Below, one piece after another: positions 818-23,490 of a stretch of 32,000 nt of DNA; within the stretch, counting starts at the first letter, position 1, and every line of letters starts with the position of its first letter. The position numbers were made by a program, and so were the translations under genes. The stretch is taken from NCBI GenBank assembly GCA_046757465.1, contig JBHHYH010000017.1:10752-42751 (forward strand), read 5' to 3'. Under the pieces are notes generated by a model. The model was not told the DNA's origin. It saw only the letters and a list, made by a program, of their open reading frames with translations, and ran no database searches. This DNA is from Candidatus Scalinduaceae bacterium (lineage in GTDB: Bacteria > Planctomycetota > Brocadiia > Brocadiales > Scalinduaceae).

Positions 818-1864
818 ATGTATCAAACCAACATGAAAAATACTATAAAACATTCAATATTCATTGTTATCCTAATCCTCGCATATTCAAAATACTCCTG
901 CATGGCCAATGAGACAAACGTAAGCGAAGGAGATTCTAAATCCATTATTAAAGTAAACGCTACTGTTGATAAGGCTAAGATAACGATTGGGGACAAAATA
1001 ACATATAAAATAATAGTTGATTCCCCTGAGGAAATAGAGGTTATGTTCCCTGAGACAGGAGATAAAATAGGAGAATTCACTGCAGTAGACTTTGGCGATG
1101 AAGAGTTAAAGAAGGAAGACGGAAGGATTACGCTGGAAAGGTGGTATACGCTTGAGACTTATACTACTGGTTCATATATCATTCCTGCAATTACCGTAAA
1201 ACACAAAAGAAAAGATGAGGAAAAAATAAGAGAAGCAAAAACACCTGAGATCTTTATTGAGGTTGTAAGTATATTAGATGAAAATGCAAGCGACATAAGA
1301 GATATAAAGCCCCCCGTATCACTTAACAAAAATTACTACAGGCTTTACCTGATCATTGCGATTACGCTTGGAGTGTTGGGAATAGTAGGCGCTATCATAT
1401 TATTTTTATATCGTAGAAAACACAGTAGAAAGATAGACTTCGTTCCAGAACCTCTACCTGCTCATGAGATTGCCTATAATGAACTTGAGAATCTGAAGGC
1501 CTTAAACCTGATATCGAAAGGTAGAATAAAGGAGTATTATTATGTCCTAACCAATATTGTTAGGCATTACATCGAAAACCGATTCAGGTTGATGGCTCCT
1601 GAACGAACAACCGAGGAGTTCTTGGCGGAAATGGCAATTACCGACAAGTTAGAAGAAAAACACAAACAACTTATTAGAAATTTTCTTGTGCATTGTGATC
1701 TGGTAAAGTATGCAAAATATGGCCCTAATAATCAGGAAATAGAAGATGCTTTTAATTCAGCAAAAACGCTGGTTGATGAAACCAGGGGAGTTTTAGAACC
1801 CGTCCCCGCCTATACCAGAACGGGCAGGCGAATGGCTAGGCCGGGCGGAAAGGTTGCAGTATGA
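818..1864 (+). CDS. DUF4381-like membrane protein of the Bat operon
   Basis: Signal-peptide-like N-terminus. Single central TM helix (LYLIIAITLGVLGIVGAIILFLY). C-terminal helical region ending ...FLVHCDLVKYAKY is typical of DUF4381. The stop overlaps the batA start (ATGA at 1861-1864). The true start may be the M at 833. Confidence 0.6.
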   Translation: MYQTNMKNTIKHSIFIVILILAYSKYSCMANETNVSEGDSKSIIKVNATVDKAKITIGDKITYKIIVDSPEEIEVMFPETGDKIGEFTAVDFGDEELKKEDGRITLERWYTLETYTTGSYIIPAITVKHKRKDEEKIREAKTPEIFIEVVSILDENASDIRDIKPPVSLNKNYYRLYLIIAITLGVLGIVGAIILFLYRRKHSRKIDFVPEPLPAHEIAYNELENLKALNLISKGRIKEYYYVLTNIVRHYIENRFRLMAPERTTEEFLAEMAITDKLEEKHKQLIRNFLVHCDLVKYAKYGPNNQEIEDAFNSAKTLVDETRGVLEPVPAYTRTGRRMARPGGKVAV

Positions 1865-2862
1865 TATTTTTAAAAGATCCACTAGCGCTCATCTTGATCA
1901 TTATCTTGATTCCACTTATACTTGCAAACTACATTTTAAGAAAAGATAGTGGTAATTTAAGATTCTCCTCTCTTAGATATTTTAAAAAGATAAAACAAGG
2001 AAGGTTTGTTAAATTAAGACACATCCTGATTGGTTTAAGGATATTTGTAATTGTCTTGCTGGTAACTGCCCTTGCGAGACCTCAATCAGGGAAAGCCCAC
2101 TCGAAGGTAAAAACTGAAGGGATCGATATAGTTCTAGCATTAGATGTATCTAGTAGTATGTTAGCGGAAGATTTTGAATCAAAGGGTAAAAGACGAAATC
2201 GCCTCTATGTAGCCAAAGAAGTAGTTGAGGACTTTATTAAATGGCGTGAAAATGATCGTATAGGGATGGTAGTATTTGCGGGACATGCTTATACTCAGTG
2301 CCCGCTGACACCAGATTATGATGTACTATTACAGTTTCTTGAAAAAGTAAAAATTGGAATGGTTGAAGATGGAACTGCAATTGGCTCTGCGATAGGGGTG
2401 TGTGTGAATAGGATAAAGTCTTCTAAAGCTAAAAGTAAGGTGATAATTCTTCTAACCGATGGTCGTAACAATAGTGGTGAAATCGATCCGTTAACGGCCG
2501 CAGAATTAGCAAAAACATTTGGTATAAAAATATATACAGTTGGAGCAGGAACAAAGGGGCTTGCGCCTTATCCCAGAACAAATCTACTTGGATATAAGGT
2601 GTACCAATCTTTAAAGATTGAGATTGATGATGAGGGTTTGACGGAAATTGCAAAGATTACGGGCGGCAGGTATTTCAGAGCGACGGATACCGACTCCCTG
2701 AAAGAAGTTTACAGGCAAATTGATAACCTGGAAAAGACCGAAATGGAAGTTGCCAAATACACAGAGTACAACGAACTTTTTCATTATTTAGTAATCCCTG
2801 CATTAGGAATATTCCTTTTTGAGATTGTTCTTGCAAACACAAGGTTCAAAAGAATTCCCTGA
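1861..2862 (+). CDS. batA: BatA-type von Willebrand factor A membrane protein
   Basis: N-terminal TM helices. vWA MIDAS motif LALDVSSSM (DxSxS), then TDGRNNSG. C-terminal TM helix. Operon context. Confidence 0.85.
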   Translation: MIFLKDPLALILIIILIPLILANYILRKDSGNLRFSSLRYFKKIKQGRFVKLRHILIGLRIFVIVLLVTALARPQSGKAHSKVKTEGIDIVLALDVSSSMLAEDFESKGKRRNRLYVAKEVVEDFIKWRENDRIGMVVFAGHAYTQCPLTPDYDVLLQFLEKVKIGMVEDGTAIGSAIGVCVNRIKSSKAKSKVIILLTDGRNNSGEIDPLTAAELAKTFGIKIYTVGAGTKGLAPYPRTNLLGYKVYQSLKIEIDDEGLTEIAKITGGRYFRATDTDSLKEVYRQIDNLEKTEMEVAKYTEYNELFHYLVIPALGIFLFEIVLANTRFKRIP

Positions 2863-2867
2863 GTTTA

Positions 2868-2913
2868 TTTAGAGGGACAGGCATCTTTTTTGTAAAAAAA
2901 GCCAGTCCCTTTA
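2868..2913 (+). repeat. Conserved intergenic hairpin element (copy 1, batA-batB gap)
   Basis: tttagagggacaggcatcttttttgtaaaaaaagccagtcccttt. The first 32 nt match the reverse complement of 14874-14920 at 31 of 32 positions. Confidence 0.8.
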
Positions 2914-2926
2914 GGAGTCATAATTT

Positions 2927-3943
2927 ATGAAATACGAAAGTATTAACTATCTCTATCTACTGCCATTAGTTTTTATCATGGTTATAGCTTACATTGTATT
3001 TTTTAAGAACAAACAAAAGGCGCTAAGAAAGTTCGTTCAAGCAGAATTATTGGACAGAATAGCCTTATCAGTAAGCAAAAAGAAGCAGATAGCAAAGGCC
3101 GCCTTTGCTATTACGGCCATACTCTTTATTATCTTTTCTCTAGTCCAACCTAAATGGGGATATCACTGGGAAGAGGTGGAGAGAATGGGAGTTGATATAG
3201 TTATTGCAGTAGATACATCCAGAAGTATGCTTGCGGATGACATTAAACCTAACAGGCTGGAGGCTGCCAAGAGAGAGATCAGGAGCCTTTTGAATATTAT
3301 AGAGGGCGATAGGATTGGATTAGTCGCATTTGCAGGGACTGCGTTTACCCAATGCCCGCTCACCCTTGATTACGGCGCATTCAATCTTTTCCTCGATGAT
3401 CTCGATACAAGTCTCATTCCTGTGGGGGGTACGGCTATTGGCGAGGCGATAAAAAAGAGCCTGTCAGCCTTTAATGATAAGGTAAAAAAACACAAGGCCA
3501 TAGTCCTCATAACAGATGGTGAAGACCATCAGGGTAATGCAATAGAAATGGCAAAGATTGCCAAGGAACAGGGCATAATTATATATACGATTGGTGTGGG
3601 TAAAAAAGAAGGCGCCTATATCAAGATAAAAGACAAAGGAAAGGACGTCCTATTAAAAGATAAGGATGGAAAGGTTGTCAAATCACACCTCGATGAAATA
3701 GCCTTAAACAAGATAGCATTGGAAACGGGAGGGGCGTATTCTCCAGCATATGGAGCCCAGTGGGGCCTGGACAATATTTATAAAAATATCATTGCCAAGA
3801 TGGAGAAAAAAGAATTGGACAGTAAAAAAATAAAGTTATATGAGAATCGCTACCAAATCCCATTATTTATCTCGCTTATCCTTATTATGCTGGAATCATT
3901 GATCGGAGAAAGAGCCAGAAAAACCAATTCTCAGGTAACGTGA
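2927..3943 (+). CDS. batB: BatB-type von Willebrand factor A membrane protein
   Basis: TM helices at both ends. MIDAS motif IAVDTSRSM and ITDGEDHQG. AGGAG ribosome-binding site about 8 nt upstream of the ATG. Confidence 0.85.
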   Translation: MKYESINYLYLLPLVFIMVIAYIVFFKNKQKALRKFVQAELLDRIALSVSKKKQIAKAAFAITAILFIIFSLVQPKWGYHWEEVERMGVDIVIAVDTSRSMLADDIKPNRLEAAKREIRSLLNIIEGDRIGLVAFAGTAFTQCPLTLDYGAFNLFLDDLDTSLIPVGGTAIGEAIKKSLSAFNDKVKKHKAIVLITDGEDHQGNAIEMAKIAKEQGIIIYTIGVGKKEGAYIKIKDKGKDVLLKDKDGKVVKSHLDEIALNKIALETGGAYSPAYGAQWGLDNIYKNIIAKMEKKELDSKKIKLYENRYQIPLFISLILIMLESLIGERARKTNSQVT

Positions 3944-3957
3944 AATAAGAGAATGAT

Positions 3958-4809
3958 ATGCGAAATCTTAATACAAAAGTGAGCATCTTTATATTGTTAC
4001 TCTGCACAATGTTGATCGGATGGGTAGACCCGGCTTCAGATAAAAATGAGGAAGGGATTCGTCTCTACAATGAAGAAAAACCTGACGAGGCAATCAGTAA
4101 ATTTACGGATGCGCAATCATACGCCCCAGAATCACAATCATTAGATTTCAACATAGCAAATACTCATTACAAGGAAGGTAAATTCCCTGAGGCTGAAAAA
4201 TCTTTTAAAGATGTTATGAAGACAAAAGATAATACCTTAAAAGCAAAGGCCAATTACAACTTGGGTAATACTATGTACAAACAGGGTAAATTCAAGGAAG
4301 CCCTTAACTTCTATAAAAAGGCTATTGAATTAACCGAGGAGAAGGAAAAGAGCAACTCGAAGGACAAAGAAACAGCAAGTATAAGAGAAGATGCTAAATA
4401 CAATTATGAATTTGTCCAGAAAAAGATGGAAGAGATGCAAAAGGAACAACAGGAAAGGCAAGAGCAAGAAAAACAAAAACAACAAGAGCAGCAAGAACAG
4501 GAGAAACAGGAACAGGAACAACAACAAGAAGAACAAGAAAAGGATAAACAGCAATCAGAAAAAGAAGACCCTGATCAACAAGAACAGCAAGACAAACAAG
4601 CTAAAGGGGAAAAGAATGAACAAATGAAAGAACGGCCACAAGAAAATGAAATGGAAGAACCACCCCCACCACCTCATGAAAAAAGAGAAATGACAAAGGA
4701 GGAAGCTGAAAGGATCCTTGAAGCTATGAAACAGGCAGAGATGGCCGCAAGAGATGCAAAGGAAAAAAAACATAAAGCTGCACAATTTAGCATTGAAAAG
4801 GATTGGTAA
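3958..4809 (+). CDS. batC: BatC-type TPR protein with E/Q/K-rich low-complexity tail
   Basis: Signal or TM N-terminus. TPR units (NIANTHYKEGKFPEAEKSF; YNLGNTMYKQGKFKEALNFYKKAIE). Then a long QEQ/KEQ tract and a PPPPP run. Confidence 0.75.
   Translation: MRNLNTKVSIFILLLCTMLIGWVDPASDKNEEGIRLYNEEKPDEAISKFTDAQSYAPESQSLDFNIANTHYKEGKFPEAEKSFKDVMKTKDNTLKAKANYNLGNTMYKQGKFKEALNFYKKAIELTEEKEKSNSKDKETASIREDAKYNYEFVQKKMEEMQKEQQERQEQEKQKQQEQQEQEKQEQEQQQEEQEKDKQQSEKEDPDQQEQQDKQAKGEKNEQMKERPQENEMEEPPPPPHEKREMTKEEAERILEAMKQAEMAARDAKEKKHKAAQFSIEKDW
4437..4600 (+). repeat. Low-complexity caa/gaa/cag codon tract (E/Q/K-rich region of batC)
   Basis: Translation QKEQQERQEQEKQKQQEQQEQEKQEQEQQQEEQEKDKQQ... This tract generates three spurious overlapping ORFs in the six-frame track. 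Confidence 0.8.
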
Positions 4810-4813
4810 AAAA

Positions 4814-6652
4814 ATGATAAAGAAATTCTATACGATTACGTTCCTAATATTTCTATTTGTAAACAACCTTGCAACTGTTCATGCAGATGAAATAGAGCTT
4901 ACGGCAAGTGTTGATAAGACTACGGTTGAATTAGGCAGCTACGTTCGTTTTACAATTGGTGTCCATGGCGCGTTTGATACAGATCAACCACAGCTTCCAC
5001 CGCTTGAAAGCTTTTCTCTTGGATACGGGCCGACTGTATCCACTCAGACAAAGATAGTAAACAACGTTGTATCCGTTTACCGTGGGTTCAGTTACGGATT
5101 AATTGCGAAGGAAAAAGGCAAATTTACAATAGGACCTATAACATTAGAATATAAAGGGAAGACATATAAATCAAACCCGGTTAATATAGAAGTTGTCGAA
5201 AGAGCACCGTTTGAAAACAAAGGGCGTAAGAGGGGAGACAAAGATATTGATATTTCCAAAAAGATATTTGTTGAACTCTCGACTGATAAGACAGAAGCCT
5301 ATATTTATGAACAGATTATCAGGTCTTTCAAGTTATATTTTCAAAAGGGATTGTCAATAGATGACCTTGAATATGTCCCTGCCTCAACTAAAAGTTTCCT
5401 TGTAGAAAAGCTTGGCGACGAGAGACGTTATGAGGAGGTTCGTAACGGAATACTCTACAGTGTAATAGAGCTTCGCACAGCGCTTTTTCCTGTAGTTTCG
5501 GGTGAGATAGAAATACCTCCCGCAAATTTCAAGTGCAATATCCTTATCAGACAACAACATAGAAGAAATTGGGACCCATTTGAAAATTCGCTATTTGATG
5601 AGTTCCTTGGTAGAAGTGAATATAGATATCCTGTGGAGAGAAGCACTAACTCATTAAAATTAAGAATAAAACCTTTACCAGTATCTGGGAAACCAGAAGG
5701 TTTTGCCGGCGCAGTGGGAAAGTTTACGATGGACGTTCTTGCAAAACCCACCGAAGTAAAAGTTGGCGACCCTATAACGTTATCCATAAACATTTCAGGA
5801 AAAGGGAACATACAAACGATTGGCGAACCGACACTTGCTCCTGAAGGCTTGGAGGGTTTTGAGCTTTATCCTGCTGAAGTCAATACAATTATCACAGATA
5901 GAGAAGAAGGCATTAAGGGTGAAAAATTGTTTAATAAAGTAATCGAGCCGCAACATGAAAATATTAAGGCAACTCCAGCAATATCATTCAGTTTCTTTGA
6001 TCCTGTATTAGAGAAATACCAGACTATTACCAGCAAACCAATCCCAATTATGGTAGAACAATCTGATATGGAGACACCCATACGCCTTTCACTTGAAGGC
6101 GTTGAAAAGACAAAGGCGCAGGCAAGAATATTGACCAAAGACATCCTGCCCATAATGTCTGATTTATACTCATTTAAAAATCAGGGGTTTGTTCTATATA
6201 AAAGGCCCTTGTTTATGGCCCTTATTTTTTTCACGCCAATACTCTTTGTAATAGCATGTATTTATGCACAGAGACACAGAGAACTGTTACAAACTGATAT
6301 GGGCTATGCAAGAAAAAGACGTGCGCCGTCTCAGATGAAAAAACAGCTTTCCAATACAAGACAGCTCATACAACATGGAAATCCTCAAGAATTTTACGCA
6401 GCACTTGCCAAAACGCTAACGGACTATATTGCAAATAAAACAGATTTACCACCGGCTTCTATCACACTCGAAAATGTCTCTGATATCTTAGGCAACCGCT
6501 GCGTTTCTTCCGGTACTGTAGAAAAACTTAAACAATGCCTTGAGTCGTGCGATCATGGTAGATTTTCTGCCCGTCATCACCCAAAGGATCAATTGGAAGA
6601 TGCGTTTAAGACTGCAAAAAACGTCATTAAGCTTTTAGAAAAACAATTATGA
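4814..6652 (+). CDS. batD: BatD-type oxygen-tolerance family protein
   Basis: The ORF runs 4754..6652. I prefer the M at 4814 because it directly precedes a signal peptide (MIKKFYTITFLIFLFVNNLATVHA) and removes a 56-nt overlap with batC. Large beta-rich ectodomain, C-terminal TM helix (LFMALIFFTPILFVIACIYA) and a cytoplasmic tail. Confidence 0.75.
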   Translation: MIKKFYTITFLIFLFVNNLATVHADEIELTASVDKTTVELGSYVRFTIGVHGAFDTDQPQLPPLESFSLGYGPTVSTQTKIVNNVVSVYRGFSYGLIAKEKGKFTIGPITLEYKGKTYKSNPVNIEVVERAPFENKGRKRGDKDIDISKKIFVELSTDKTEAYIYEQIIRSFKLYFQKGLSIDDLEYVPASTKSFLVEKLGDERRYEEVRNGILYSVIELRTALFPVVSGEIEIPPANFKCNILIRQQHRRNWDPFENSLFDEFLGRSEYRYPVERSTNSLKLRIKPLPVSGKPEGFAGAVGKFTMDVLAKPTEVKVGDPITLSINISGKGNIQTIGEPTLAPEGLEGFELYPAEVNTIITDREEGIKGEKLFNKVIEPQHENIKATPAISFSFFDPVLEKYQTITSKPIPIMVEQSDMETPIRLSLEGVEKTKAQARILTKDILPIMSDLYSFKNQGFVLYKRPLFMALIFFTPILFVIACIYAQRHRELLQTDMGYARKRRAPSQMKKQLSNTRQLIQHGNPQEFYAALAKTLTDYIANKTDLPPASITLENVSDILGNRCVSSGTVEKLKQCLESCDHGRFSARHHPKDQLEDAFKTAKNVIKLLEKQL

Positions 6653-7509
6653 GGAGAAAAAAAATATTAACATTTTTTATTCTTTTCCTTATGTTTCTTT
6701 CCAGTAGCCTGACTTTTGCTGGAGAGGTAACACGAGAAGAAGCTATTGATGTTTTCTTTAAAGCAAATGAAGAGTATAATGCTGCTCAAAAGGAAATGGC
6801 TGCAAAAAAAGAAAAAGAGGCTTTAGAAAAATTTGAACATGCCGCACGGCTTTATGAGAAACTGCTCGGGTCCAATTTTATAAGCGGCCAGATTTACTAT
6901 AACCTGGGTAATGCATATTATAGACAGGGGATGGCCGGGAGGGCAATACTACACTACCGCAGGGCAGAAAAACTGCTTCCAAGAAATGCCGACGTAAAGG
7001 CGAACATAGACTTATTGAAAAGCGATTTTGAAGATAAAGAGTCAATGCGCCAGATGCCGGAGATCCTGAAGATTATGTGTTTCTGGTATTTCTTTCTTAA
7101 TATAAATGAGATTACGATTCTTACTGTATATATGTATCTTGCTTTTATGGCATCTATTCTCTCAATCATTTTTTTAAGATTCCAATGGCTTAAAAAAATT
7201 TCCACTATTTTGGCATCATGTCTATTCGTGTTGGTTATTTCTCTTGGTCTAATGGCTTATAATCAATACTCTATTGAAAGAGGTGTGGTAATTGCCGACG
7301 AATGTGAGATAAGATACGGACCCGGCGAAGAATACGAACCCAAATTTGAGATACATGAAGGCGCGGAAGTTAAAATAGAGGAGGAAAGAAACAAGTGGTA
7401 TAAGGTGTATGTCTATGTGGATGTTGAAAGTATTCGTGATAATGAGGAACAGAAAGATATTGAGTTCAAAAAGGGCTGGATACCTAAAGCCAAAGTAGAG
7501 AAGATATGA
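6649..7509 (+). CDS. batE: BatE-type TPR / SH3b membrane protein
   Basis: ATGA start/stop overlap with batD. Signal peptide. TPR unit (YYNLGNAYYRQGMAGRAILHYRRAEKL). Three TM helices. C-terminal SH3b-like segment (KWYKVYVYV...KGWIPKAKV). Confidence 0.7.
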   Translation: MRRKKILTFFILFLMFLSSSLTFAGEVTREEAIDVFFKANEEYNAAQKEMAAKKEKEALEKFEHAARLYEKLLGSNFISGQIYYNLGNAYYRQGMAGRAILHYRRAEKLLPRNADVKANIDLLKSDFEDKESMRQMPEILKIMCFWYFFLNINEITILTVYMYLAFMASILSIIFLRFQWLKKISTILASCLFVLVISLGLMAYNQYSIERGVVIADECEIRYGPGEEYEPKFEIHEGAEVKIEEERNKWYKVYVYVDVESIRDNEEQKDIEFKKGWIPKAKVEKI

Positions 7510-10311: not shown

Positions 10312-11784
10312 CTAACTTACGGGAACACCATTTTCTACAGGGGCAGATACTGAAACAGCACTGCTCTTATACCAGTCTTGATAATAATCCCCGGAATCAT
10401 ATAATTTATGTAGATTTTCCAGTACCTGTTCAAAGACCTGTTGCCAGTCAGAACCAACCCTGAAGCCAAACATAGCGTTGCGTTTGCCATGCCTCGTACT
10501 ACCAATAGTCTTAAGTGACTTTCTAAAACGCATTCTCAGGTTGTCACCAGCATAAAGATGGTCATACATATATTGCATACCATCAATAAAATCTTCCAGG
10601 GTCATGTCAACAAATCTATGAACTACATGCGCAGTATCGTAATATTTCCAGTCAGCAGGATAATTCTTACGGAAAATCCTCTTTTCTGAATCCAATCTAT
10701 GATAAAGCTCAGTTTTTGGAAATGGACAATTGATACCAAAGGTAAGGACGTCAATGTTATTTTCCAATACAAATTCTGTCATCTTTTTGAATGAATCTTT
10801 ACCGTCTCCATCTGCTCCCAAGACTATGGACCCCCAAACAACAAGGCCGTGGTCATGAATCTTTTGAATGCAGTCATAATAATTATCCGTACCAAGTCTT
10901 AAATTGGTCTTTTTGTGCATCTTCTCCAGGACAGCTTCATTTGTCGATTCTATTCCACAGAGAAATCCAAAATTTCCACTCTTTGCCATCAGATCGAGCG
11001 CTTCCGCATCCTGCGATATATTAAGCGCCGTAAACCCTAGCCAATCCTTTTCGATACCTCTTTCTATCATCCCACGCCAGAGCGCCTTTGCCCTATTAGC
11101 AGAGTTCTTACTATGACCGTAGAAATTGTCCTCAGCAAACATTAGCCCCCTGTAATCGGTTGCCTCCATCTCATCCAGGACGTCTTCGTATGGCCTTTCC
11201 CTGAATTTTTTGCCCTGAAAGGTAGGGACGCTGCAGAAATCACAGTAATTCGGACAACCCTTCGTTGTAACAATAGAAGAGAACTTGTAATTATATTTCC
11301 TCTTCATGAGTTCTCTATTGGGAAAAACATGCTTCATTTCTGACAGGGCTGGCAACCCACCATTATAAACTTTTTTGAGCTGACCGTTTTCAAAATCCTT
11401 AATGACTTGAGGCCAGAGAGCCTCCGCTTCTCCCGTAAATATAGCATCAACGTATTTAGATGCTTCATCAGGCATTACGGATGCATGGATTCCGCCAATT
11501 ATCACGGTCATGCCTTTTTTTCTACATGCTTCAGCTATCTTGTACGCCCTTGCCACTTGATATGTAACAGAGGTCATACATACCAAATCAACAGGCTCAA
11601 AGGTTAATTCATCATTATCATCAAGGGCAAGTTCCAGATTCTCATCAATTACGTCAAACTCCCAGTCTCCGGGTGTAAGGGCGGAAATATATGCCAGATT
11701 TAAGGGCATTTGTACTATGACGGTTATACTTTCCTCACCATGCCTTCCCGGTGGGTGCGGATTGATAAGCATCATTTTTCTCAT
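10312..11784 (-). CDS. B12-binding-domain radical SAM enzyme
   Basis: N-terminal cobalamin-binding-like domain (DLVCMTSVTYQ...TVIIGGIHAS), followed by the radical SAM cluster motif CPNYCDFC (CxxxCxxC). Confidence 0.85.
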   Translation of the reverse strand: MRKMMLINPHPPGRHGEESITVIVQMPLNLAYISALTPGDWEFDVIDENLELALDDNDELTFEPVDLVCMTSVTYQVARAYKIAEACRKKGMTVIIGGIHASVMPDEASKYVDAIFTGEAEALWPQVIKDFENGQLKKVYNGGLPALSEMKHVFPNRELMKRKYNYKFSSIVTTKGCPNYCDFCSVPTFQGKKFRERPYEDVLDEMEATDYRGLMFAEDNFYGHSKNSANRAKALWRGMIERGIEKDWLGFTALNISQDAEALDLMAKSGNFGFLCGIESTNEAVLEKMHKKTNLRLGTDNYYDCIQKIHDHGLVVWGSIVLGADGDGKDSFKKMTEFVLENNIDVLTFGINCPFPKTELYHRLDSEKRIFRKNYPADWKYYDTAHVVHRFVDMTLEDFIDGMQYMYDHLYAGDNLRMRFRKSLKTIGSTRHGKRNAMFGFRVGSDWQQVFEQVLENLHKLYDSGDYYQDWYKSSAVSVSAPVENGVPVS

Positions 11785-11796
11785 TTTATTCTCCTC

Positions 11797-13242
11797 CTAA
11801 TTATTTAAAATCATATTCGCCACCCTCCAACCAGAGGATACAACCGCGCATACCCCTGGTCCCGGGTTTGTCCAATGTCCTGCTAGAAATAGATTATTGA
11901 AAGGTGTTTTATGTTGAAGTCTATTCGACCATGTCTGATCCACTGTAACAGCCCAACCGTAGGCAGCGCCTTTTGAATTGAGTGTATAGCGTTTAAGTGT
12001 CTTCGGTGTTGCTGCTTCGATAACGTCAATATGATTTCGGATGTTGGGAACAAGAGTTTCAAGATATTTTAATGTATATTCTTTCATTTCTTCTTTAAAG
12101 GTAACCCAATTTTCAATATCACCATAGTCTTCTTTTAAGGATACAACAACAGAAATTATTTGCTTTTCATCAGGGGCAAGACTTTTATCCGTTTTTGTCG
12201 GTACCGATATATAAAACCAACCATTATTGGAAAAACTTATATCATCTGACGTATGGTAAAAACCTCTTTTTAGTGCTTTTAAGTCAATGCCTTCATCAAG
12301 ACCCAGATACAATAGAAAAAATGAAATACTTTCCTTCATTGACTGGATCTTATGAAGATAGGAATCGTTAACTTCCTTTTCTTCTATTAACTCGGAAAAG
12401 GTCTGCTTTGGATCGATGTTTGATACAAAAACATCAGCAAAAAACTCTTTTCCTTTATTTGTCAAGACTCCTTTCACAAGTGTATCCCTTATATATATCT
12501 TGTTGACGGTAGAAGATAGCATAATTTGACCGCCATAGTCAATGAATTTTTGAGCAATCGCATCGGCGAAATTTTGGGTGCTGCCCACAGGGTAAAAAGC
12601 CCCATCCTTTAGATAATTTACCAGCATCTGGCACATACCAATAGCCGAGACTTCGTGAGGAGGCGAACCGATGTAGCCCCATTGTGCGGACAAGATAGCT
12701 TTAAGTTGCTCATCAGTAAAAAACTTATCTAACATTTCCTTGTAAGTAACATCTTGATATTTAGTTAGCAATTTACTTCGTTCAGCCCTAACCGTAGACC
12801 GATACAGTCCCACAAATTCTTTAAAAAAGGATGATAAATTTTCACTTTCAGATGTAAACCGTTGTTTTAGCAAATTGACGTAATCATCAATCTCGGCAGG
12901 AATATCTATAGAGAAAGAAGGAAAATTTATGCTGTCCATAGGATCAAGTCTTAAAAAATTAATATTTATATCAAGTTCTTTAAGGCTTCTACCGACTATA
13001 CTCCATTTTCCGCATCCACCAATGTGGTGAACCGCTGCGTCGAAAATAAAGCCTTTTCTTTTGAAAGAAGTGCAGTAACCCCCGGGTATATTATGTTGTT
13101 CAATTATCAAAACTTTTTTTCCACTTTTTGCTAAGAAAGCGCCGCAGATTAGTCCTCCAATCCCAGCCCCTAATATAATTACGTCATACTTGGATTGTAT
13201 TTTGGATTCATCTAAGGAAAAGTCACGTGTAGAAACGGCCAT
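11797..13242 (-). CDS. FAD-dependent oxidoreductase, CrtI / phytoene-desaturase-like
   Basis: Dinucleotide-binding motif DVIILGAGIGGLICGAFLAKSGKKVLIIE. The length (481 aa) and C-terminal GHWTNPGPG are typical of the CrtI family. Confidence 0.8.
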   Translation of the reverse strand: MAVSTRDFSLDESKIQSKYDVIILGAGIGGLICGAFLAKSGKKVLIIEQHNIPGGYCTSFKRKGFIFDAAVHHIGGCGKWSIVGRSLKELDININFLRLDPMDSINFPSFSIDIPAEIDDYVNLLKQRFTSESENLSSFFKEFVGLYRSTVRAERSKLLTKYQDVTYKEMLDKFFTDEQLKAILSAQWGYIGSPPHEVSAIGMCQMLVNYLKDGAFYPVGSTQNFADAIAQKFIDYGGQIMLSSTVNKIYIRDTLVKGVLTNKGKEFFADVFVSNIDPKQTFSELIEEKEVNDSYLHKIQSMKESISFFLLYLGLDEGIDLKALKRGFYHTSDDISFSNNGWFYISVPTKTDKSLAPDEKQIISVVVSLKEDYGDIENWVTFKEEMKEYTLKYLETLVPNIRNHIDVIEAATPKTLKRYTLNSKGAAYGWAVTVDQTWSNRLQHKTPFNNLFLAGHWTNPGPGVCAVVSSGWRVANMILNN

Positions 13243-13374
13243 ATAGTACCTTATTTCTTAAATCTTGAATAATTCTGGCAAAACATGTTCCTGACAGGCC
13301 CAGGAATATATATCAATAGAATTTCTCTGAAGTTAGGAAAGGTTAAGGGTTAGGAGGCCGGTGTAGTAGTCGGG

Positions 13375-13476
13375 CTAAGGTAAGGTAAAGATCGATTAAC
13401 TACTTAACCCACCCGCCCGTACCGAACTGTACGTTCGGGCGGGTTGACCAAACTGGCATCTTTACCCTAACCTAAC
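13375..13476. repeat. GC-rich imperfect palindrome inside the lipid operon
   Basis: Central hairpin acccgcccg (13411-13419) / cgggcgggt (13436-13444). It is flanked by ctaaggtaaggtaaagat (13375-13392) and atctttaccctaacctaac (13458-13476). Confidence 0.7.
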
Positions 13477-13555
13477 AACTTAACCAGATGTATATTAGTA
13501 CCTGTTTGGTTCTGGTCGTACCTTCGGCAGAGGCGCCGGGACGAACTTGTCCAGG

Positions 13556-14791
13556 CTAGGAGTATCTTGATATGATTAAGGATGAGATGTTGCCTGTATC
13601 TGAAAAGTCGTCAACCAGGACGTTTTTTACGTCTAATTTTCTGCTTTTATTAGGTACATAATCTAAATCGCATTCATCGTCCACTTCTTGATAATTTATT
13701 GTTGGAGGTATAACACTGTTGTTAATTGCCATTATACTTGCAACACTTTGCATTGCACCCGACGCGTCAAGGCACTCCCCCGTCATTGATTTTATAGCAC
13801 TTATGGGCACTTTCTTAGCATAACCACCAAAGTAGTCTTTAATAACCCTGGTTTCCATTCTATCACCCGTTATGCTGGAGTTTGCGCATGCAGATATGTA
13901 AGAGATGTCGTCAATATTAAGTTCCGCATCTTTCATTGCCAAAGAAATGCATCTTATACCCTCTTTAGTATCTAAATTGTCGTGGTAAATCTTTTTCGGA
14001 TTAAAGGTGTTTCCGTAACCCTTTATCTCGGCATAAATTCTTGCGTTTCTTTTTAATGCGTCCTCGAGCCTTTCTATCGCCATTAATGCAGCAGCTTCAC
14101 CAATTACGAAACCGTTGCGCCTTTTGTCATATGGTGTTGAAATCTCAATGGCGCTATCTTTGTAACCTGCTAATATTCCAGACCTGTAAGCTCCCCAAAA
14201 TATGTCCGGGGTTAAACCGTGAACTCCCCCAGCCAAAACCGCCTTCACCCTGCCTAACCTCAGGAAATCAGAGGCGTAAATAATAGCATCAAGGCCACTG
14301 GTAACTCCAGTAGATATAGTGGAGTTAAGGCCCGTGGCTTTGCAAAATATAGAGGCCCTGCTTGCAGGAGCATTTAGAACTGTATTTGGGAAGGCCATTG
14401 GATTAACATAATTAGGACCTTCCCTTAACGCTTCAAAGTCAAATGTACTGATACTATCTATACTGCCATAAGTAGAACCGATTACAATTCCTAAATCTTC
14501 CTCAGTATAGATTTCGTGCGTTATTTTAGCATCGTCCATTACAAGCTTTGCGGCTGAAGATGCCAATAGCGAAGTCCTGTCTATATGTCGTATTCCTTTC
14601 TTGCCCAAAAACACCTTTGCATCAAAATCTGATATCTCTCCCGCCTTCTTGCTCCTGTATTTGGATACGTCAAATAGTGTAATATCCTTTATCCCGGAAA
14701 CACCTTTTGTCAAATTGCTCCAAAACTCGTCTTTATTTACACCGATTGGTGACAAAATGCTAATACCTGTTATAACTAATCGAGTATCCAT
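13556..14791 (-). CDS. Ketosynthase-like protein lacking the catalytic Cys (chain-length-factor-like partner)
   Basis: Full-length thiolase-fold KS homolog. The active-site TAC-AAG is replaced by STGVTSG (Val163, codon 14303-14305). AHGTGT is replaced by ACANSS, and GHT by GEC. Confidence 0.8.
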   Translation of the reverse strand: MDTRLVITGISILSPIGVNKDEFWSNLTKGVSGIKDITLFDVSKYRSKKAGEISDFDAKVFLGKKGIRHIDRTSLLASSAAKLVMDDAKITHEIYTEEDLGIVIGSTYGSIDSISTFDFEALREGPNYVNPMAFPNTVLNAPASRASIFCKATGLNSTISTGVTSGLDAIIYASDFLRLGRVKAVLAGGVHGLTPDIFWGAYRSGILAGYKDSAIEISTPYDKRRNGFVIGEAAALMAIERLEDALKRNARIYAEIKGYGNTFNPKKIYHDNLDTKEGIRCISLAMKDAELNIDDISYISACANSSITGDRMETRVIKDYFGGYAKKVPISAIKSMTGECLDASGAMQSVASIMAINNSVIPPTINYQEVDDECDLDYVPNKSRKLDVKNVLVDDFSDTGNISSLIISRYS

Positions 14792-14873
14792 TACAATTGT
14801 TCCGTTGAAAAATTATCCCATAAAAAAAAGTTAATGGCCTTGTTCTAAGATACCATTAACAATTTAAATACTA

Positions 14874-14920
14874 AAGGGACAGGCTTCCTTTTTTATAAAA
14901 AAGATGCCTGTCCCTCTAAA
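14874..14920 (-). repeat. Conserved intergenic hairpin element (copy 2, KS to KS-like gap)
   Basis: agggacaggc...gcctgtccct is a perfect 10-bp stem flanking a T6-ata-A6 core. It has the same orientation relative to transcription as copy 1. Confidence 0.8.
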
Positions 14921-14951
14921 CATATATGAACTTGCTGAATTCTTGCACTTT

Positions 14952-16169
14952 TTAACCCGTAAACTTTTTTAATACAAGACAACTATTGTTACCGCCAAAA
15001 GCGTAAGCATTATTTAAGGCTATATTTACTTGCATCTCACGTTTTACATTAGGAACAAAATCTAGATCACACTCCGGATCTTTAGTTTCATAGTTTATTG
15101 TGGGAGGCACTATGTCTTCTTTAACAGCTAATGCACATGCGATAGCTTCTATTGCACTGGCAGCTCCCATTGTATGCCCTATCATAGATTTTATAGAAAT
15201 CACAGCCAAACGCTTTGAATGTTCTCCAAATACTTTCTTAATAGATATTGTTTCGGCCTTGTCATTAGCAACGGTTCCAGTACCATGTGCACTTATATGC
15301 TGAACATCCTCAGGCTTGATGTTGGCGTCTTTTAAGGCCTTTCTCATCGCAGACACGACACCATTTCCCTCTGGTTGTGGAATTGTGATATGATATCCGT
15401 CACAGCTTAGACCGTAACCCAGAATTTCTGCATAGATATTTGCATTCCTTGCTAATGCATCTTCCATCGATTCTAATACCAGCATCCCGGCGCCTTCACC
15501 AATTAACATTCCTTTTCTATTTTTGTCAAAAGGCTGGCATACCTCTGGCGCAATAGCATTCAGTTTGCTAAAACCAACGTAAGCTACTTTAGAAAAAGGA
15601 TCCGTACCGCCGGCTACCATAATATCTGCTCTTCCCAATCTTATCAGGTCGCATGCATAGCCAATAGCATAATTCCCTGCGGCACATGCAGTGGGAATTA
15701 TTGTATTTGGGCCCTCAAACCCGAATTCGATAGCTATGTTTGATGGAATATTGTTGCATGGGTGCTTAAGGAATAGATCTGCATCTACGTTATCATCTCC
15801 CTTTTCATATCTTAATTGGTTTACCCTTTCTAAAATTTGAATTTCACCCGCAGTTGTGCCGATTGAAACACCGACTCTTTCAAGATCAACATTTTTTACG
15901 TCAATTTTAGAGTCATCTAAGGCTAGCTTAGTTGCTGCGATTGCAAATTGTGATCCCTTGCCAACTTTTCTTGAACCGTTACTTATATAGTCTTCATACT
16001 TGAAATCTTTAACTTCACAACCGTTATGTACTTTAAAATCAGATGTGTCAAACGCCTTGACTTCCGAGGCTCCGGATACGCCGGAAGTTAATGCATCCCA
16101 GAAAATATCTTTATTGCATCCTATGGGGGATATTACACCTACACCAGTAATTACAATTCTTTTATCCAT
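14952..16169 (-). CDS. fabF: Beta-ketoacyl-ACP synthase II (FabF-type), catalytically intact
   Basis: Active-site PTACAAG (Cys162, codon 15684-15686). His motifs YHITIP and [19 protein letters not shown]. Confidence 0.9.
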
Positions 16170-16482: not shown

Positions 16483-16938
16483 TCAATCCTTTAGAGATTC
16501 TCTTTCGGCTACACCAAAACTTAATGTAGCCTTCGAAACGATCTTTTCTCCCACTCTGGCTATGCCCTTCACTATCGCTGCATTAGAAACAACTTTTTCG
16601 GTATTGATTTCTAAAATAAGTTGGTCGCCTGGAAAGACTGGTTTTGAGAAGCGGACGTTAGCCGAGGCCAACAAAAAGACCTTGTCTTTGTCCTTGTCAG
16701 CATCAAAACTCTTTCTAAAGAGTATGATTGATGCTTGGGCCATGGCTTCTAAGATTAAGACTCCTGGCATTATGGCAAAATCCGGAAAGTGTCCAACGAA
16801 GAACGATTCATTACCGGAAATATTCTTTAAACAAACAATTTTGCTTTCCTTCTGAAACTCAACAACTTTATCAATAAATAAGAACGGATATTTTTGAGGA
16901 ATCAACTTTCTTATTTCCTCAAAGCTCAACATTTGCAA
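16483..16938 (-). CDS. fabZ: 3-hydroxyacyl-ACP dehydratase (FabZ-type)
   Basis: Hotdog-fold motifs IPQKYPFLFIDKV and VGHFPDFAIMPGVLILEAMAQ. Confidence 0.9.
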   Translation of the reverse strand: MQMLSFEEIRKLIPQKYPFLFIDKVVEFQKESKIVCLKNISGNESFFVGHFPDFAIMPGVLILEAMAQASIILFRKSFDADKDKDKVFLLASANVRFSKPVFPGDQLILEINTEKVVSNAAIVKGIARVGEKIVSKATLSFGVAERESLKD

Positions 16939-17014: not shown

Positions 17015-17284
17015 TTATTTCTTGGTATTTTCTTCCAGTATTGATTTCGTCATCCCAATCGTAGCGTTTAGTGATGTAATGTCTACTAATTTTTCTTCAG
17101 GAATTTGAATTTTGTATTTTTTCTCAATAAGTGCCAGAATTTCCAATGCCAGCAAGGAATCTATTTCTAACTCCTTAAAAAAATCAGAGTCTCTTTTTTC
17201 CCATATTTCACTTTCCTCTAACTCAGTTACTTCAGCCACAATTGATGTAACCTCTTTATCTATATTATCTGCAGTCAATATCAT
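17015..17284 (-). CDS. Dedicated acyl carrier protein
   Basis: 89 aa and acidic. Phosphopantetheine attachment motif LEIDSLLALE (DSL). First gene of the minus-strand cassette. Confidence 0.85.
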   Translation of the reverse strand: MILTADNIDKEVTSIVAEVTELEESEIWEKRDSDFFKELEIDSLLALEILALIEKKYKIQIPEEKLVDITSLNATIGMTKSILEENTKK

Positions 17285-22490: not shown

Positions 22491-22961
22491 CCCTTTTTAA
22501 AGACCCCTGCCTCAAATGCCAAAATTGCTTTCTTAACCCTTTCTGTACCCGTCTCCCTTGCCTTTTTTTTAATTCTTTAAAAACCTGGCAATCGTTTTAA
22601 CAAATTCTTTGGTATCAATGGGTTTGGAGATGAACGCATCACAACCAGCATTCATTATCATTTTTTTTTCTTCCTTCATTGTGCTGGCTGAACAGACTAT
22701 AAGAGTTATATTCTTTGTTATGGAATATTGTTTAAACTTTCTAACTAATTCTACCCCTCCTATATCCGGAAGCCCAGAGTCCAATAATATTAGATCCGGT
22801 ATTTCTGACTTAGCCATGTTAAACCCCTCTTTTCCATTGACAGCTTGAAGGATTAAATAACCCTCATCCTCAAGGAGGTCACTGAACAACTCCATATTCA
22901 TTAGATTGTCTTCGATGATAAGTATCCTTCCTTTAGCCATTCTTCCTCCTTAAGGGAATAG
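22491..22961. repeat. Direct repeat copy A (471 bp, period 529 bp)
   Basis: Nearly identical to 23020-23490. Contains the whole REC gene, its downstream intergenic sequence and the last ~27 bp of the kinase gene. Confidence 0.9.
22569..22940 (-). CDS. Single-domain response regulator (CheY-like), duplicate copy A
   Basis: ILIIEDN...DLILLDSGLPDIGG...ISKP. Differs from copy B at only two residues (G4/E4, L13/A13). Confidence 0.85.
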   Translation of the reverse strand: MAKGRILIIEDNLMNMELFSDLLEDEGYLILQAVNGKEGFNMAKSEIPDLILLDSGLPDIGGVELVRKFKQYSITKNITLIVCSASTMKEEKKMIMNAGCDAFISKPIDTKEFVKTIARFLKN

Positions 22962-23019
22962 ATTCTATCATCTCTATAAAGCCCTCTACCAGCTTTGGCA
23001 TCCCATTGAGTTCCCTTCC

Positions 23020-23490
23020 CCCTTTTTAAAGACCCCTGCCTCAAATGCCAAAATTGCTTTCTTAACCCTTTCTGTACCCGTCTCCCTTGCCTTTTTTTTA
23101 ATTCTTTAAAAACCTGGCAATCGTTTTAACAAATTCTTTGGTATCAATGGGTTTGGAGATGAACGCATCACAACCAGCATTCATTATCATTTTTTTTTCT
23201 TCCTTCATTGTGCTGGCTGAACAGACTATAAGAGTTATATTCTTTGTTATGGAATATTGTTTAAACTTTCTAACTAATTCTACCCCTCCTATATCCGGAA
23301 GCCCAGAGTCCAATAATATTAGATCCGGTATTTCTGACTTAGCCATGTTAAACCCCTCTTTTCCATTGACAGCTTGAAGGATTAAATAACCCTCATCCTC
23401 AAGGAGGTCACTGAACAACTCCATATTCATTGCATTGTCTTCGATGATAAGTATTCTTTCTTTAGCCATTCTTCCTCCTTAAGGGAATAG
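23020..23490. repeat. Direct repeat copy B (471 bp)
   Basis: See copy A. The few mismatches cluster at the 5' end of the REC gene. A 58-bp unique spacer (22962-23019) separates the copies. Confidence 0.9.
23098..23469 (-). CDS. Single-domain response regulator (CheY-like), duplicate copy B
   Basis: Same motifs as copy A. The start overlaps the histidine kinase stop by 8 nt. Confidence 0.85.
   Translation of the reverse strand: MAKERILIIEDNAMNMELFSDLLEDEGYLILQAVNGKEGFNMAKSEIPDLILLDSGLPDIGGVELVRKFKQYSITKNITLIVCSASTMKEEKKMIMNAGCDAFISKPIDTKEFVKTIARFLKN

Follow-up and report, generated by a model that had tools for sequence, protein, structure and literature searches.

The strained cyclobutane fatty acids of ladderane lipids are unique, and their biosynthesis is unsolved. 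The leading candidate for their synthesis, by a link that is circumstantial, is Cluster I, which in Kuenenia corresponds to kuste3603-3608 (Granatino et al., bioRxiv, May 2026, 10.64898/2026.05.19.726425). It includes two beta-ketoacyl synthases (KS), amxFabF2 and amxFabFmut. The loss of the catalytic triad in amxFabFmut was tabulated by Rattray et al. 2009 (Table 2), who proposed that this dead paralogue couples a ladderane moiety that is made separately into the fatty-acid pathway. Its pattern is Val or Thr at the Cys position and Asn, Cys or Glu at the His positions (Granatino et al.; Rattray 2009, Table 2), with Thr at the nucleophile position in S. brodae (Granatino et al.). By working with the KustE3605/3606 and Broful02171/02170 pairs, Granatino et al. 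found that the two proteins co-purify and that only the co-expressed pair decarboxylates malonyl-ACP and forms acetoacetyl-ACP, and they crystallised a KS/chain-length factor (CLF)-like heterodimer from these orthologues. In the same preprint, Phe135, Thr138 and Val139 of the Brocadia dead subunit line the substrate tunnel of the partner, and a crystal structure together with mutants indicates that the tunnel residues of the dead subunit change the chain-length preference. This preference derives from a crosslinking reaction that is not physiological, acetoacetyl-ACP being the only product of the heterodimer in vitro (Granatino et al.).

Similar pairs are described elsewhere. In type II polyketide synthases (PKS) such as that of actinorhodin (ActI-ORF1/ORF2, PDB 1TQY), KS-beta is a full-length, Cys-less KS fold whose gene directly follows that of the active KS. 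The actinorhodin CLF heterodimerises and shapes the tunnel of its partner, as do the characterised amxFabFmut orthologues, and its triad reads QDR, with Gln in place of the nucleophile. Decarboxylative priming in aromatic type II PKS is driven by this Gln of the CLF. Iga11/Iga12 of the ishigamide system (PDB 6KXD-6KXF) is likewise a KS/CLF pair, which together with a FabZ-like dehydratase makes acyl chains that are reduced and unsaturated. ApeO/ApeC of E. coli CFT073 (PDB 6QSP) is a functional analogy only, in that its FAS-like cluster also pairs an active KS with a subunit that is not catalytic. In contrast, the canonical FabF (B. subtilis, PDB 4LS5/4LS6) is a homodimer with two active sites.

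A triad-less ketosynthase in a Scalindua Cluster I

We analysed a 32,000-nt stretch of DNA (the window) from a member of the anammox genus Candidatus Scalindua. Six of its genes lie in the order ACP-FabZ-KS-KS'-CrtI-rSAM, which is identical in all 30+ Brocadiia loci examined and is the same as in kuste3603-3608:

17015-17284, minus strand: amxACP-type acyl carrier protein (ACP), 89 aa (PF00550)
16483-16938, minus strand: amxFabZ-type 3-hydroxyacyl-ACP dehydratase, 151 aa (PF07977)
14952-16169, minus strand: active KS, 405 aa, amxFabF2 orthologue (KustE3605), with Cys162/His295/His332
13556-14791, minus strand: KS', triad-less beta-ketoacyl synthase, 411 aa, amxFabFmut orthologue (KustE3606 / Broful02170 / Scabro02228)
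11797-13242, minus strand: CrtI/phytoene-desaturase-family FAD oxidoreductase, 481 aa, at the KustE3607 position (TIGR02734, PF01593)
10312-11784, minus strand: B12-binding radical-SAM enzyme, 490 aa, at the KustE3608 position (PF02310 and PF04055)

The ACP scored 130, 127 and 118 bits against PDB chains 7qv0_D, 7auf_A and 9s5i_E, respectively, and at most 37 bits against other ACPs. FabZ scored 253 bits against 8ayi/7qv0 and at most 113 bits against chains beyond that top group. The CrtI-like protein matched TIGR02734 (crtI_fam) with E = 1e-48, below the model cutoff, and the best NCBIfam match of the B12 radical-SAM protein was TIGR04072 (rSAM_ladder_B12) at 89.8 bits, far below the 360-bit cutoff; both genes are syntenic in all Brocadiia loci examined. 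In these loci the active KS always has the Cys-His-His triad with FHP and always lies upstream of KS'.

KS' has the full length of a beta-ketoacyl synthase and carries the N- and C-terminal KS domains of Pfam (PF00109, E = 1e-35; PF02801, E = 7e-24); it is 36% identical to the adjacent KS across its full length (BLASTP, E = 2e-88). The first-pass annotation of this locus had claimed, from an alignment by eye, that KS' has lost the catalytic Cys and both catalytic His (hereafter His1 and His2). First, we could confirm this loss by BLASTP and a codon check. BLASTP pairs STGVTSG, SACANSS and TGECLD of KS' with PTACAAG, SAHGTGT and IGHTMG of the adjacent KS, the triad positions being Val163/Cys302/Glu339 in KS' and Cys162/His295/His332 in its neighbour, and the Val163 codon lies exactly where it had been placed:

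14303-14305, minus strand: GTT, Val163 at the catalytic Cys position of KS' (BLASTP alignment and codon check)
13886-13888, minus strand: TGC, Cys302 at the His1 position (BLASTP alignment and codon check)
13775-13777, minus strand: GAG, Glu339 at the His2 position (BLASTP alignment and codon check)
14378-14392, minus strand: codons of Phe134 ... Thr137-Val138 (FPNTV) in the helix-loop-helix of KS', Phe135/Thr138/Val139 in Brocadia numbering

Second, the segments that had been taken as fold-defining (VITG, LRLGR, PPTINY and CDLDYVPN) are each found in KS'. Third, a shift in the by-eye alignment can be discarded, as a MAFFT alignment put Cys at the nucleophile column in 0 of 120 orthologue clusters. 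In addition, a HMMER alignment of KS' to the solved orthologue 9s5h_C placed Val on Val and Glu on Glu. Since the MAFFT columns and the HMMER alignment agree, the triad placement is not an alignment artefact. KS' also scored only 347.4 bits against the TIGR03150 model, under its cutoff of 493.75, so that with its missing Cys-His-His triad it does not qualify as a canonical FabF.

The two proteins match two chains deposited in one PDB entry, KS' matching 9s5h_C over residues 3-410 (603.6 bits, E = 1.5e-180) and the active KS matching 9s5h_B (695.6 bits, E = 1.9e-208), and the sister entry 9s5i holds the ACP chain matched by the window ACP. We infer that 9S5H/9S5I are the structures of the Granatino preprint, because the chain composition fits, the main text of the preprint carrying no codes. 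The active KS also scored 340.5 bits against the Iga11 KS (6kxd_A), Iga11 being the closest structural homologue of amxFabF2 in the preprint. The AF2 monomer model of KS' was poor (mean pLDDT 66.6, 35 orthologues), with low confidence at residues 34-70, 108-132, 138-163 and 204-230. By using it in Foldseek, we obtained generic FabF matches only (TM about 0.67), and 9S5H was absent among the matches listed (structure library to April 2026). Counting net charge crudely over the helix-loop-helix segments of the window proteins (residues 110-140 / 196-206) gave -3/0 for KS' and -2/+1 for KS and did not reproduce the electrostatic asymmetry reported in the preprint. The Brocadia segment, counted by eye, has the same crude charge, and such a count is uninformative without 3D surfaces.

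Then, we compared KS' with the described systems. With the KustE3606/3605 and Broful02170/02171 heterodimers (amxFabFhet), it shares the downstream position of the dead subunit, Val at the nucleophile site, Glu at His2 and the F/T/V residues. The His1 site, however, is Cys in KS' and Asn in Brocadia-named sequences and Kuste3606, and the nucleophile position is Val in the KS' lineage whereas the preprint gives Thr for S. brodae amxFabFmut. As a set, Val163/Cys302/Glu339 fits the replacement pattern of amxFabFmut in the preprint and in Rattray 2009 (Table 2). With KS-beta of type II PKS it shares the full-length, Cys-less KS fold and the position directly downstream of an active KS. Here the nucleophile position differs from the Gln of the actinorhodin CLF, being Val163 in KS' and V/T/E/I in orthologues, and the context of KS' is FAS-like (FabZ, ACP) whereas aromatic type II PKS come with cyclases. 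The first-pass annotation had also cited aryl-polyene systems as an example of a CLF on a retained KS scaffold. This does not apply, as E. coli ApeC has 240 aa and no similarity to KS' (E = 1.1). We likewise rejected the ApeC family for KS', ApeC being a truncated protein of that length with this BLASTP E value; its PDB matches were 6qsp_B and 7f28_A only.

Together, these data suggest that KS' is a catalytically dead amxFabFmut orthologue and the obligate CLF-like partner of the adjacent active KS, to which we give a probability of about 0.88. Orthology, synteny, triad loss, invariant tunnel residues and purifying selection are observed here (see below). Heterodimer formation, activity and the effect on chain length have been demonstrated in the Kuenenia and Brocadia orthologues only, so that this reading is supported but already known from the experiments of Granatino et al. 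By analogy, the pair of the window probably behaves like its orthologues, and its product may feed ladderane lipid synthesis. In such a mechanism, KS' would be a correctly folded but dead FabF-type ketosynthase in an obligate 1:1 heterodimer with the amxFabF2 orthologue, which would hold the single active site. The heterodimer would take substrates on the cluster's own ACP, decarboxylate malonyl-ACP and condense to acetoacetyl-ACP. The helix-loop-helix of KS' (Phe134, Thr137, Val138) would close and shape the acyl tunnel of the partner and bias it to short chains of about C6-C8, as a chain-length factor does in type II PKS.

The earlier proposal of a non-catalytic, CLF-like partner rather than a redundant FabF was thus borne out, by the biochemistry of the preprint on orthologues and by firm orthology. 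It had named control of chain length or of starter decarboxylation; in the orthologues, tunnel residues of the dead subunit alter the chain-length preference. Since KS' has Val instead of Gln at its nucleophile position, any starter decarboxylation should be ascribed to the site of the active subunit.

Conservation and selection across KS' orthologues

To 120 orthologue clusters we added KS' and aligned the 121 sequences with MAFFT. The nucleophile column is V in 53, T in 59, E in 5 and I in 4 of them, and never Cys. The His1 column is Cys in 98, among them every V-C-E (39) and T-C-E (59) sequence, and Asn in 23, including Brocadia-named sequences and Kuste3606. The His2 column is Glu in 120 and Asp in one, and none of the 121 sequences combines Cys-His-His. 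Phe134, Thr137 and Val138 are invariant (121/121), as is Lys334.

Given that its three catalytic residues are gone and that its score is below the FabF equivalog cutoff, KS' could be seen as a redundant or decaying fabF duplicate, that is a functionless pseudo-enzyme. Several observations contradict this. First, all anammox genera sampled retain an intact ORF of 408-413 aa, with 61-96% identity to the Scalindua, Brocadia, Kuenenia and Jettenia homologues, dropping to 52% or less outside Brocadiia (the genomes were scanned with a 7-sequence alignment). Second, more than 100 alignment columns are invariant, and purifying selection acts on KS' as strongly as on the active KS beside it (dN/dS against S. 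rubra 0.052 and 0.058, respectively). Third, in a NJ tree KS' separates from the adjacent KS and falls in a distinct deep clade, which argues against a recent duplicate of the neighbour; the anammox clade of KS' has 100/100 bootstraps. Fourth, both amxFabF2 and amxFabFmut are expressed (Granatino et al.). Conservation and dN/dS thus effectively refute decay.

The same conservation could also speak for an enzyme with a re-tooled pocket (e.g. Cys302, Glu339, Lys334) and a non-FabF reaction, such as the loading or coupling of a ladderane moiety, an idea raised by Rattray et al. 2009. Indeed, selection on KS' equals that on the active KS, and the essentially invariant Glu339 and Lys334, with Cys at His1 in most sequences, do not look like simple decay. 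Moreover, in the Brocadia structure a second tunnel runs to the mutated triad and binds PEG (Granatino et al.). However, the 23 sequences with Asn in place of Cys302 imply that this Cys cannot be a universal nucleophile, and residue 163 varies (V/T/E/I). In addition, without its partner amxFabFmut was inactive and acyl-ACP probes did not crosslink to it, and electrostatic docking predicted no ACP binding at its tunnel entrance (Granatino et al.). We therefore consider a re-tooled enzyme unlikely, and keep the dead, CLF-like partner as the preferred reading.

Spacers on both sides of KS'

Compared to the amxFabFmut/amxFabF2 system of Kuenenia and Brocadia, this genome differs by extra palindromic insertions on both sides of KS':

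14792-14951, minus strand: KS-to-KS' spacer, 160 nt, with two stable hairpins (MFE -40.5 kcal/mol, z = -5.6)
about 14871-14920, minus strand: 47-nt palindromic element in the KS-to-KS' spacer
14822-14860, minus strand: terminator-like hairpin then U8 in the KS-to-KS' spacer
13243-13555, minus strand: KS'-to-CrtI spacer, 313 nt, with a long nested hairpin (MFE -51.6 kcal/mol, z = -5.6)

The hairpin and U-run of the KS-to-KS' spacer are kept in the closest relative (locus L089), where the 47-nt element is absent; an exact-pattern search for this palindrome gave no match among 88 loci. The KS'-to-CrtI junction, which is 313 nt here, measures 6 nt in both L089 and L090, and between 3 and 65 nt in L001, L003 and L004, which makes this spacer an insertion when compared with L089. 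A search of the whole window against Rfam gave no match at gathering thresholds, and a scan of the operon for consensus promoters and terminators gave counts not above those of shuffled sequence. The scan did not flag the hairpin with U8 because its loop is longer than the scan allows. A terminator-like hairpin with U8 and an inserted palindrome between KS and KS' are unlike what tightly coupled 1:1 expression would suggest.

Triad-less partners beyond anammox bacteria

Beyond the literature that we found, KS' appears to fall in a large clade of KS partners that lack the triad and occur outside anammox bacteria. In this wider clade, Glu is predominant at the His2 position. In MAGs of Omnitrophota, Nitrospirae and non-anammox Planctomycetia, members of the clade stand beside an active KS, an ACP, a FabZ-like dehydratase and a CrtI-like desaturase. 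There are also natural fusions of about 820 aa, one of them in a Helarchaeota MAG, in which an N-terminal Cys-His-His KS half is followed by a C-terminal, triad-less F..TV half. These fusions provide independent support for a physical pairing of KS and KS'.

They also bear on the possibility that KS' is mainly a homodimeric scaffold or regulator, for instance a sink for ACP, or a platform on which the desaturase or the radical-SAM enzyme docks. Such a role would fit with S. brodae amxFabFmut, which crystallised as a homodimer when expressed alone (Granatino et al.), and with several Omnitrophota genomes in which the closest non-anammox relatives have FabG and FabZ as neighbours and lack an active KS within 8 kb. 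Against it stand the KS-KS' fusions and the finding of the preprint that the heterodimer is the form that co-purifies and acts, and we regard a scaffold as very unlikely.

In the NJ tree, the actinorhodin CLF (the stretch exactly matching PDB 1tqy_B, residues 2-407) groups with the triad-less clade to the exclusion of every Cys-His-His protein in 76/100 bootstraps, this being a single CLF with long branches. The raw scores reveal no particular affinity, as this CLF scored 131.9 bits to amxFabFmut versus 200 bits to B. subtilis FabF, to which KS' scored 266 bits. ApeO falls among the partner-KS sequences, a grouping that is weakly supported. Taking these observations further, KS' might be a twig of an old and widespread triad-less clade marked by Glu at His2 and F-x-x-T-V. 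Elongation of the KS/CLF type would then be common in FAS-like lipid and polyene pathways, and the B12 radical-SAM enzyme, rather than the KS pair, would be the anammox innovation, with a possible shared ancestry with polyketide CLFs. We give this scenario an even chance.

If chain extension falls to a KS/CLF-like heterodimer that has one active site and is tuned to short chains, the routes to ladderanes are constrained, and such a heterodimer argues against a dead paralogue that couples in a pre-made ladderane unit. This point was already made experimentally by others, and the value for this window is a correct annotation. Beyond it, the dead partners in many non-anammox phyla and the natural fusions bear on how unique Cluster I is and on the meaning of the "ladderane" hits that antiSMASH gives outside anammox bacteria.

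Cluster I and its surroundings in the window

The triad-less ketosynthase KS' is encoded in a run of six co-directional genes on the minus strand (17284 to 10312), whose domains were assigned with Pfam and NCBIfam:

17015-17284, minus: ACP, 89 aa
16483-16938, minus: FabZ-like dehydratase, 151 aa
14952-16169, minus: ketosynthase (active KS), 405 aa
13556-14791, minus: ketosynthase-like ORF (KS'), 411 aa
11797-13242, minus: CrtI/phytoene-desaturase-family flavoprotein, 481 aa
10312-11784, minus: B12-binding radical-SAM protein (rSAM), 490 aa

The genes bordering this block are trpF, in divergent orientation, and a ROK-family gene, which is convergent. Upstream, a plus-strand Bat (aerotolerance-type) operon (818-7509) comprises an unassigned 348-aa ORF and genes for BatA-like, VWA and TPR proteins and for one BatD-like protein; a PilZ protein, an inositol monophosphatase and a ROK kinase are encoded after it. 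Elsewhere, a repeat with a 529-bp period (22491-23319; 300-nt copies 22491-22790 and 23020-23319, 100% identical) takes in the 3' portions of two response-regulator ORFs, both single-domain and 123 aa long (22569-22940 and 23098-23469), adjoined by a PAS-rich histidine kinase, and 21-nt-period repeats (27454-27642) within a 519-aa HAMP-domain ORF (27288-28847) are likely to code for a heptad or coiled-coil stalk.

The six genes are the kuste3603-3608 "Cluster I" of Kuenenia, and the order ACP, FabZ, KS (Cys-His-His), KS' (triad-less), CrtI, rSAM is common to every Brocadiia locus examined. The top homologues of KS' belong to Candidatus Scalindua (77-96% identity), while Brocadia- or Brocadiaceae-named ones share ~67%. 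When one genome from each GTDB species was scanned, identities of at least 61% came almost only from records whose names refer to an anammox genus, to Brocadiia or to unclassified Planctomycetota; the few exceptions carry the same Scalindua-type cluster. One of them, a MAG binned as 'uncultured Thermodesulfobacteriota' (L012, CAXMPV010000082.1), holds the complete cluster with a 77% identical KS' (triad T-C-E), probably as a result of misbinning and not of horizontal transfer. The next tier (44-52%) consists of Omnitrophota and some Planctomycetia and Nitrospirae MAGs.

KS' scored 603.6 bits against chain C and the active KS 695.6 bits against chain B of PDB 9S5H/9S5I (9S5I also includes an ACP chain); these are presumably the structures of a preprint whose main text cites no codes (bioRxiv 10.64898/2026.05.19.726425). 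The window FabZ reached 253 bits with the top dehydratase chains (8ayi, 7qv0) and at most 113 bits with solved chains outside that group, and the ACP 118-130 bits with 7qv0_D, 7auf_A and 9s5i_E and at most 37 bits with other ACPs. KS' is an amxFabFmut orthologue, showing every testable defining feature of the family.

Loss of the catalytic triad in KS'

The first-pass annotation, aligning by eye, had KS' lacking the Cys and two His-region residues, and every detail of this held. By BLASTP, KS' aligns with the active KS over its full length (36% identity, E = 2e-88), pairing TGVTSG with TACAAG, SACANSS with SAHGTGT and TGECLD with IGHTMG. The Cys162/His295/His332 triad of the active KS corresponds in KS' to:

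14303-14305, minus: GTT, Val163, nucleophile site
13886-13888, minus: TGC, Cys302, His1 site
13775-13777, minus: GAG, Glu339, His2 site

When KS' and its 120 best homologue clusters were aligned with MAFFT, no sequence had Cys-His-His: the nucleophile column held V (53), T (59), E (5) or I (4), the His1 column C (98) or N (23), and the His2 column E (120) or D (1). An HMMER alignment to the solved orthologue agreed on the triad placement, so that the manual placement, with no Cys at the nucleophile site, proved robust. V-C-E triads occur in 39 sequences (KS' of the window and S. rubra among them) and T-C-E triads in 59, including S. japonica; the other 23, Brocadia-named ones among them, are V-N-E, I-N-E or E-N-E/D. 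The preprint (bioRxiv 10.64898/2026.05.19.726425), for its part, gives Thr at the nucleophile site for no species but S. brodae. Phe134, Thr137, Val138 and Lys334 of KS' are present in 121/121 sequences and Glu339 in 120/121, a pattern that fits a conserved tunnel-shaping role. Against the FabF equivalog model (cutoff 493.75), KS' (347 bits) and likewise the active KS (461 bits) fall short; against the FabF subfamily model NF005589 (cutoff 387), the active KS passes at 446 whereas KS' fails at 335.

KS' as a probable partner of the active KS

We propose, with a probability of about 0.88, that KS' would be a non-catalytic, tunnel-shaping heterodimer partner of the active KS. The finding itself is not new. 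Rattray et al. 2009 (PMC2649909) tabulated Kuste3606 with Val163/Asn298/Glu333, judged the site incompatible with FabF chemistry and proposed a possible recruiter of a non-FAS moiety; Javidpour et al. 2016 named it "non-canonical FabF". The same heterodimer hypothesis was tested in the May 2026 preprint of Granatino et al. (bioRxiv 10.64898/2026.05.19.726425). There, KustE3605 and KustE3606 co-elute with a tag on one only, neither is active singly, and the pair decarboxylates malonyl-amxACP and forms acetoacetyl-amxACP. The Brocadia fulgida heterodimer has one catalytic tunnel, which runs through amxFabF2 and is lined by Phe135, Thr138 and Val139 of amxFabFmut; C8 and C6 probes were preferred to C16 in crosslinking, V139G and F135G/V139G altered this preference, and amxACP contacts both subunits. 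Electrostatics disfavour homodimers in the same preprint. A catalytic pocket re-tooled within KS' is not our reading, and we consider it unlikely. A homodimeric scaffold or regulator seems less likely still. The partner reading of the first-pass annotation, and the co-purification it called for, find support in the Kuenenia and Brocadia orthologues. Heterodimer formation and activity, shown only for orthologues, would be expected to carry over to the Scalindua pair, judging by identity of at least 67% and strict synteny.

Although the preprint places amxFabFmut 'just upstream' of amxFabF2, the window and all Brocadiia loci examined (L001-L042 compared) have the active KS 5' and the dead KS' downstream, the order in which KS-alpha and KS-beta usually occur. 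As for likeness to known chain-length factors (CLFs), KS' may be taken as a working analogue of the type II PKS CLF, save for Val at the nucleophile site where the actinorhodin CLF has Gln; the latter scored 131.9 bits to amxFabFmut and 200 bits to B. subtilis FabF. The suggested aryl-polyene likeness was dropped, ApeC being a 240-aa protein without similarity to KS'.

Decay of a redundant duplicate can be practically dismissed, since KS' has a dN/dS of 0.052 against S. rubra, and the active KS one of 0.058. In a neighbour-joining (NJ) tree of 188 sequences, KS' and the active KS also sit apart, so that KS' did not arise from its neighbour by recent duplication. All triad-less proteins form one clade of 111-113, without any Cys-His-His member (exact-set bootstrap 39-49), and the validated actinorhodin CLF (1tqy_B) fell within such a clade in 76/100 replicates; the tree included a single CLF, and NJ is prone to long-branch artefacts. 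The anammox KS' and KS clades had 100% and 99% bootstrap; in the reference tree the active KS grouped with fusion N-terminal halves and the aryl-polyene KS ApeO, at 5% exact-set support only.

When 1.84 billion cluster representatives were searched exhaustively, the best 150 included ~110 further clusters of triad-less KS proteins, most with Glu at His2 and the F..TV tunnel motif. C-terminal halves of ~820-aa proteins with Cys-His-His N-terminal halves account for about 40 of them, and such natural fusions are independent "Rosetta-stone" evidence that both subunit kinds act as a pair. Fusions with an F..TV C-terminal half include P0122, P0126, P0127 and about 40 more; one fusion, P0272, comes from a MAG annotated as Asgard (Helarchaeota), and the L007 fusion has a polyketide cyclase, ACPs, an acyltransferase and two further KS genes as neighbours.

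In MAGs of Omnitrophota, Nitrospirae and Planctomycetia, genes for ACP, FabZ and an active KS and a CrtI-like gene usually come after the KS' relative, with the B12 rSAM mostly missing; antiSMASH "ladderane" rule matches in such phyla were reported previously. The metagenomic locus L006 (Logan SRR32147499, 644-12079) has a Cluster-I-like operon (ACP, DH, KS, KS', CrtI, three consecutive B12 radical-SAM genes, two more KS genes) with a 48% identical KS' (triad E-G-E). The closest non-anammox relatives, in Omnitrophota and Planctomycetia MAGs (L041, L043, L052, L054, L056, L066, L070, L074, L080), have triad F-N-E, motif FTV and a FabZ-like gene downstream, with no Cys-His-His KS within 8 kb of the KS' relative. 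L041, the only one annotated by Pfam, has a FabG-type SDR between the KS' relative and the FabZ-like gene, and riboflavin genes upstream.

Spacer elements around KS'

The 313-nt KS'-CrtI spacer (13243-13555) forms a long, nested hairpin (-51.6 kcal/mol, z = -5.6). At this junction, L089 (the closest relative) and L090 have 6 nt, and L001, L003 and L004 have 3-65 nt, which indicates a strain-specific insertion of ~307 nt in the window operon; it has no second copy within the window. Between the active KS and KS' lies a 47-nt palindromic element (14871-14920; TAGAGGGACAGGC, A/T-rich loop, GCCTGTCCCTTTAG), with a second, 97% complementary copy (2868-2914) in the spacer separating two VWA (BatA/BatB-like) genes. 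Since the element is found neither in the matching spacer of L089 nor in the 88 fetched loci, it resembles a small mobile hairpin of the REP/MITE type.

The same KS-KS' spacer contains a minus-strand hairpin (GTTAATGG ... CCATTAAC; 14822-14860) followed by a U8 run, kept in the 96%-identical L089 with U9. Its loop is longer than the consensus terminator scan allows, and the scan for that reason passed it over. This element could serve as an intrinsic terminator or attenuator setting KS/KS' subunit ratios, and it separates two genes whose products should form a 1:1 complex.
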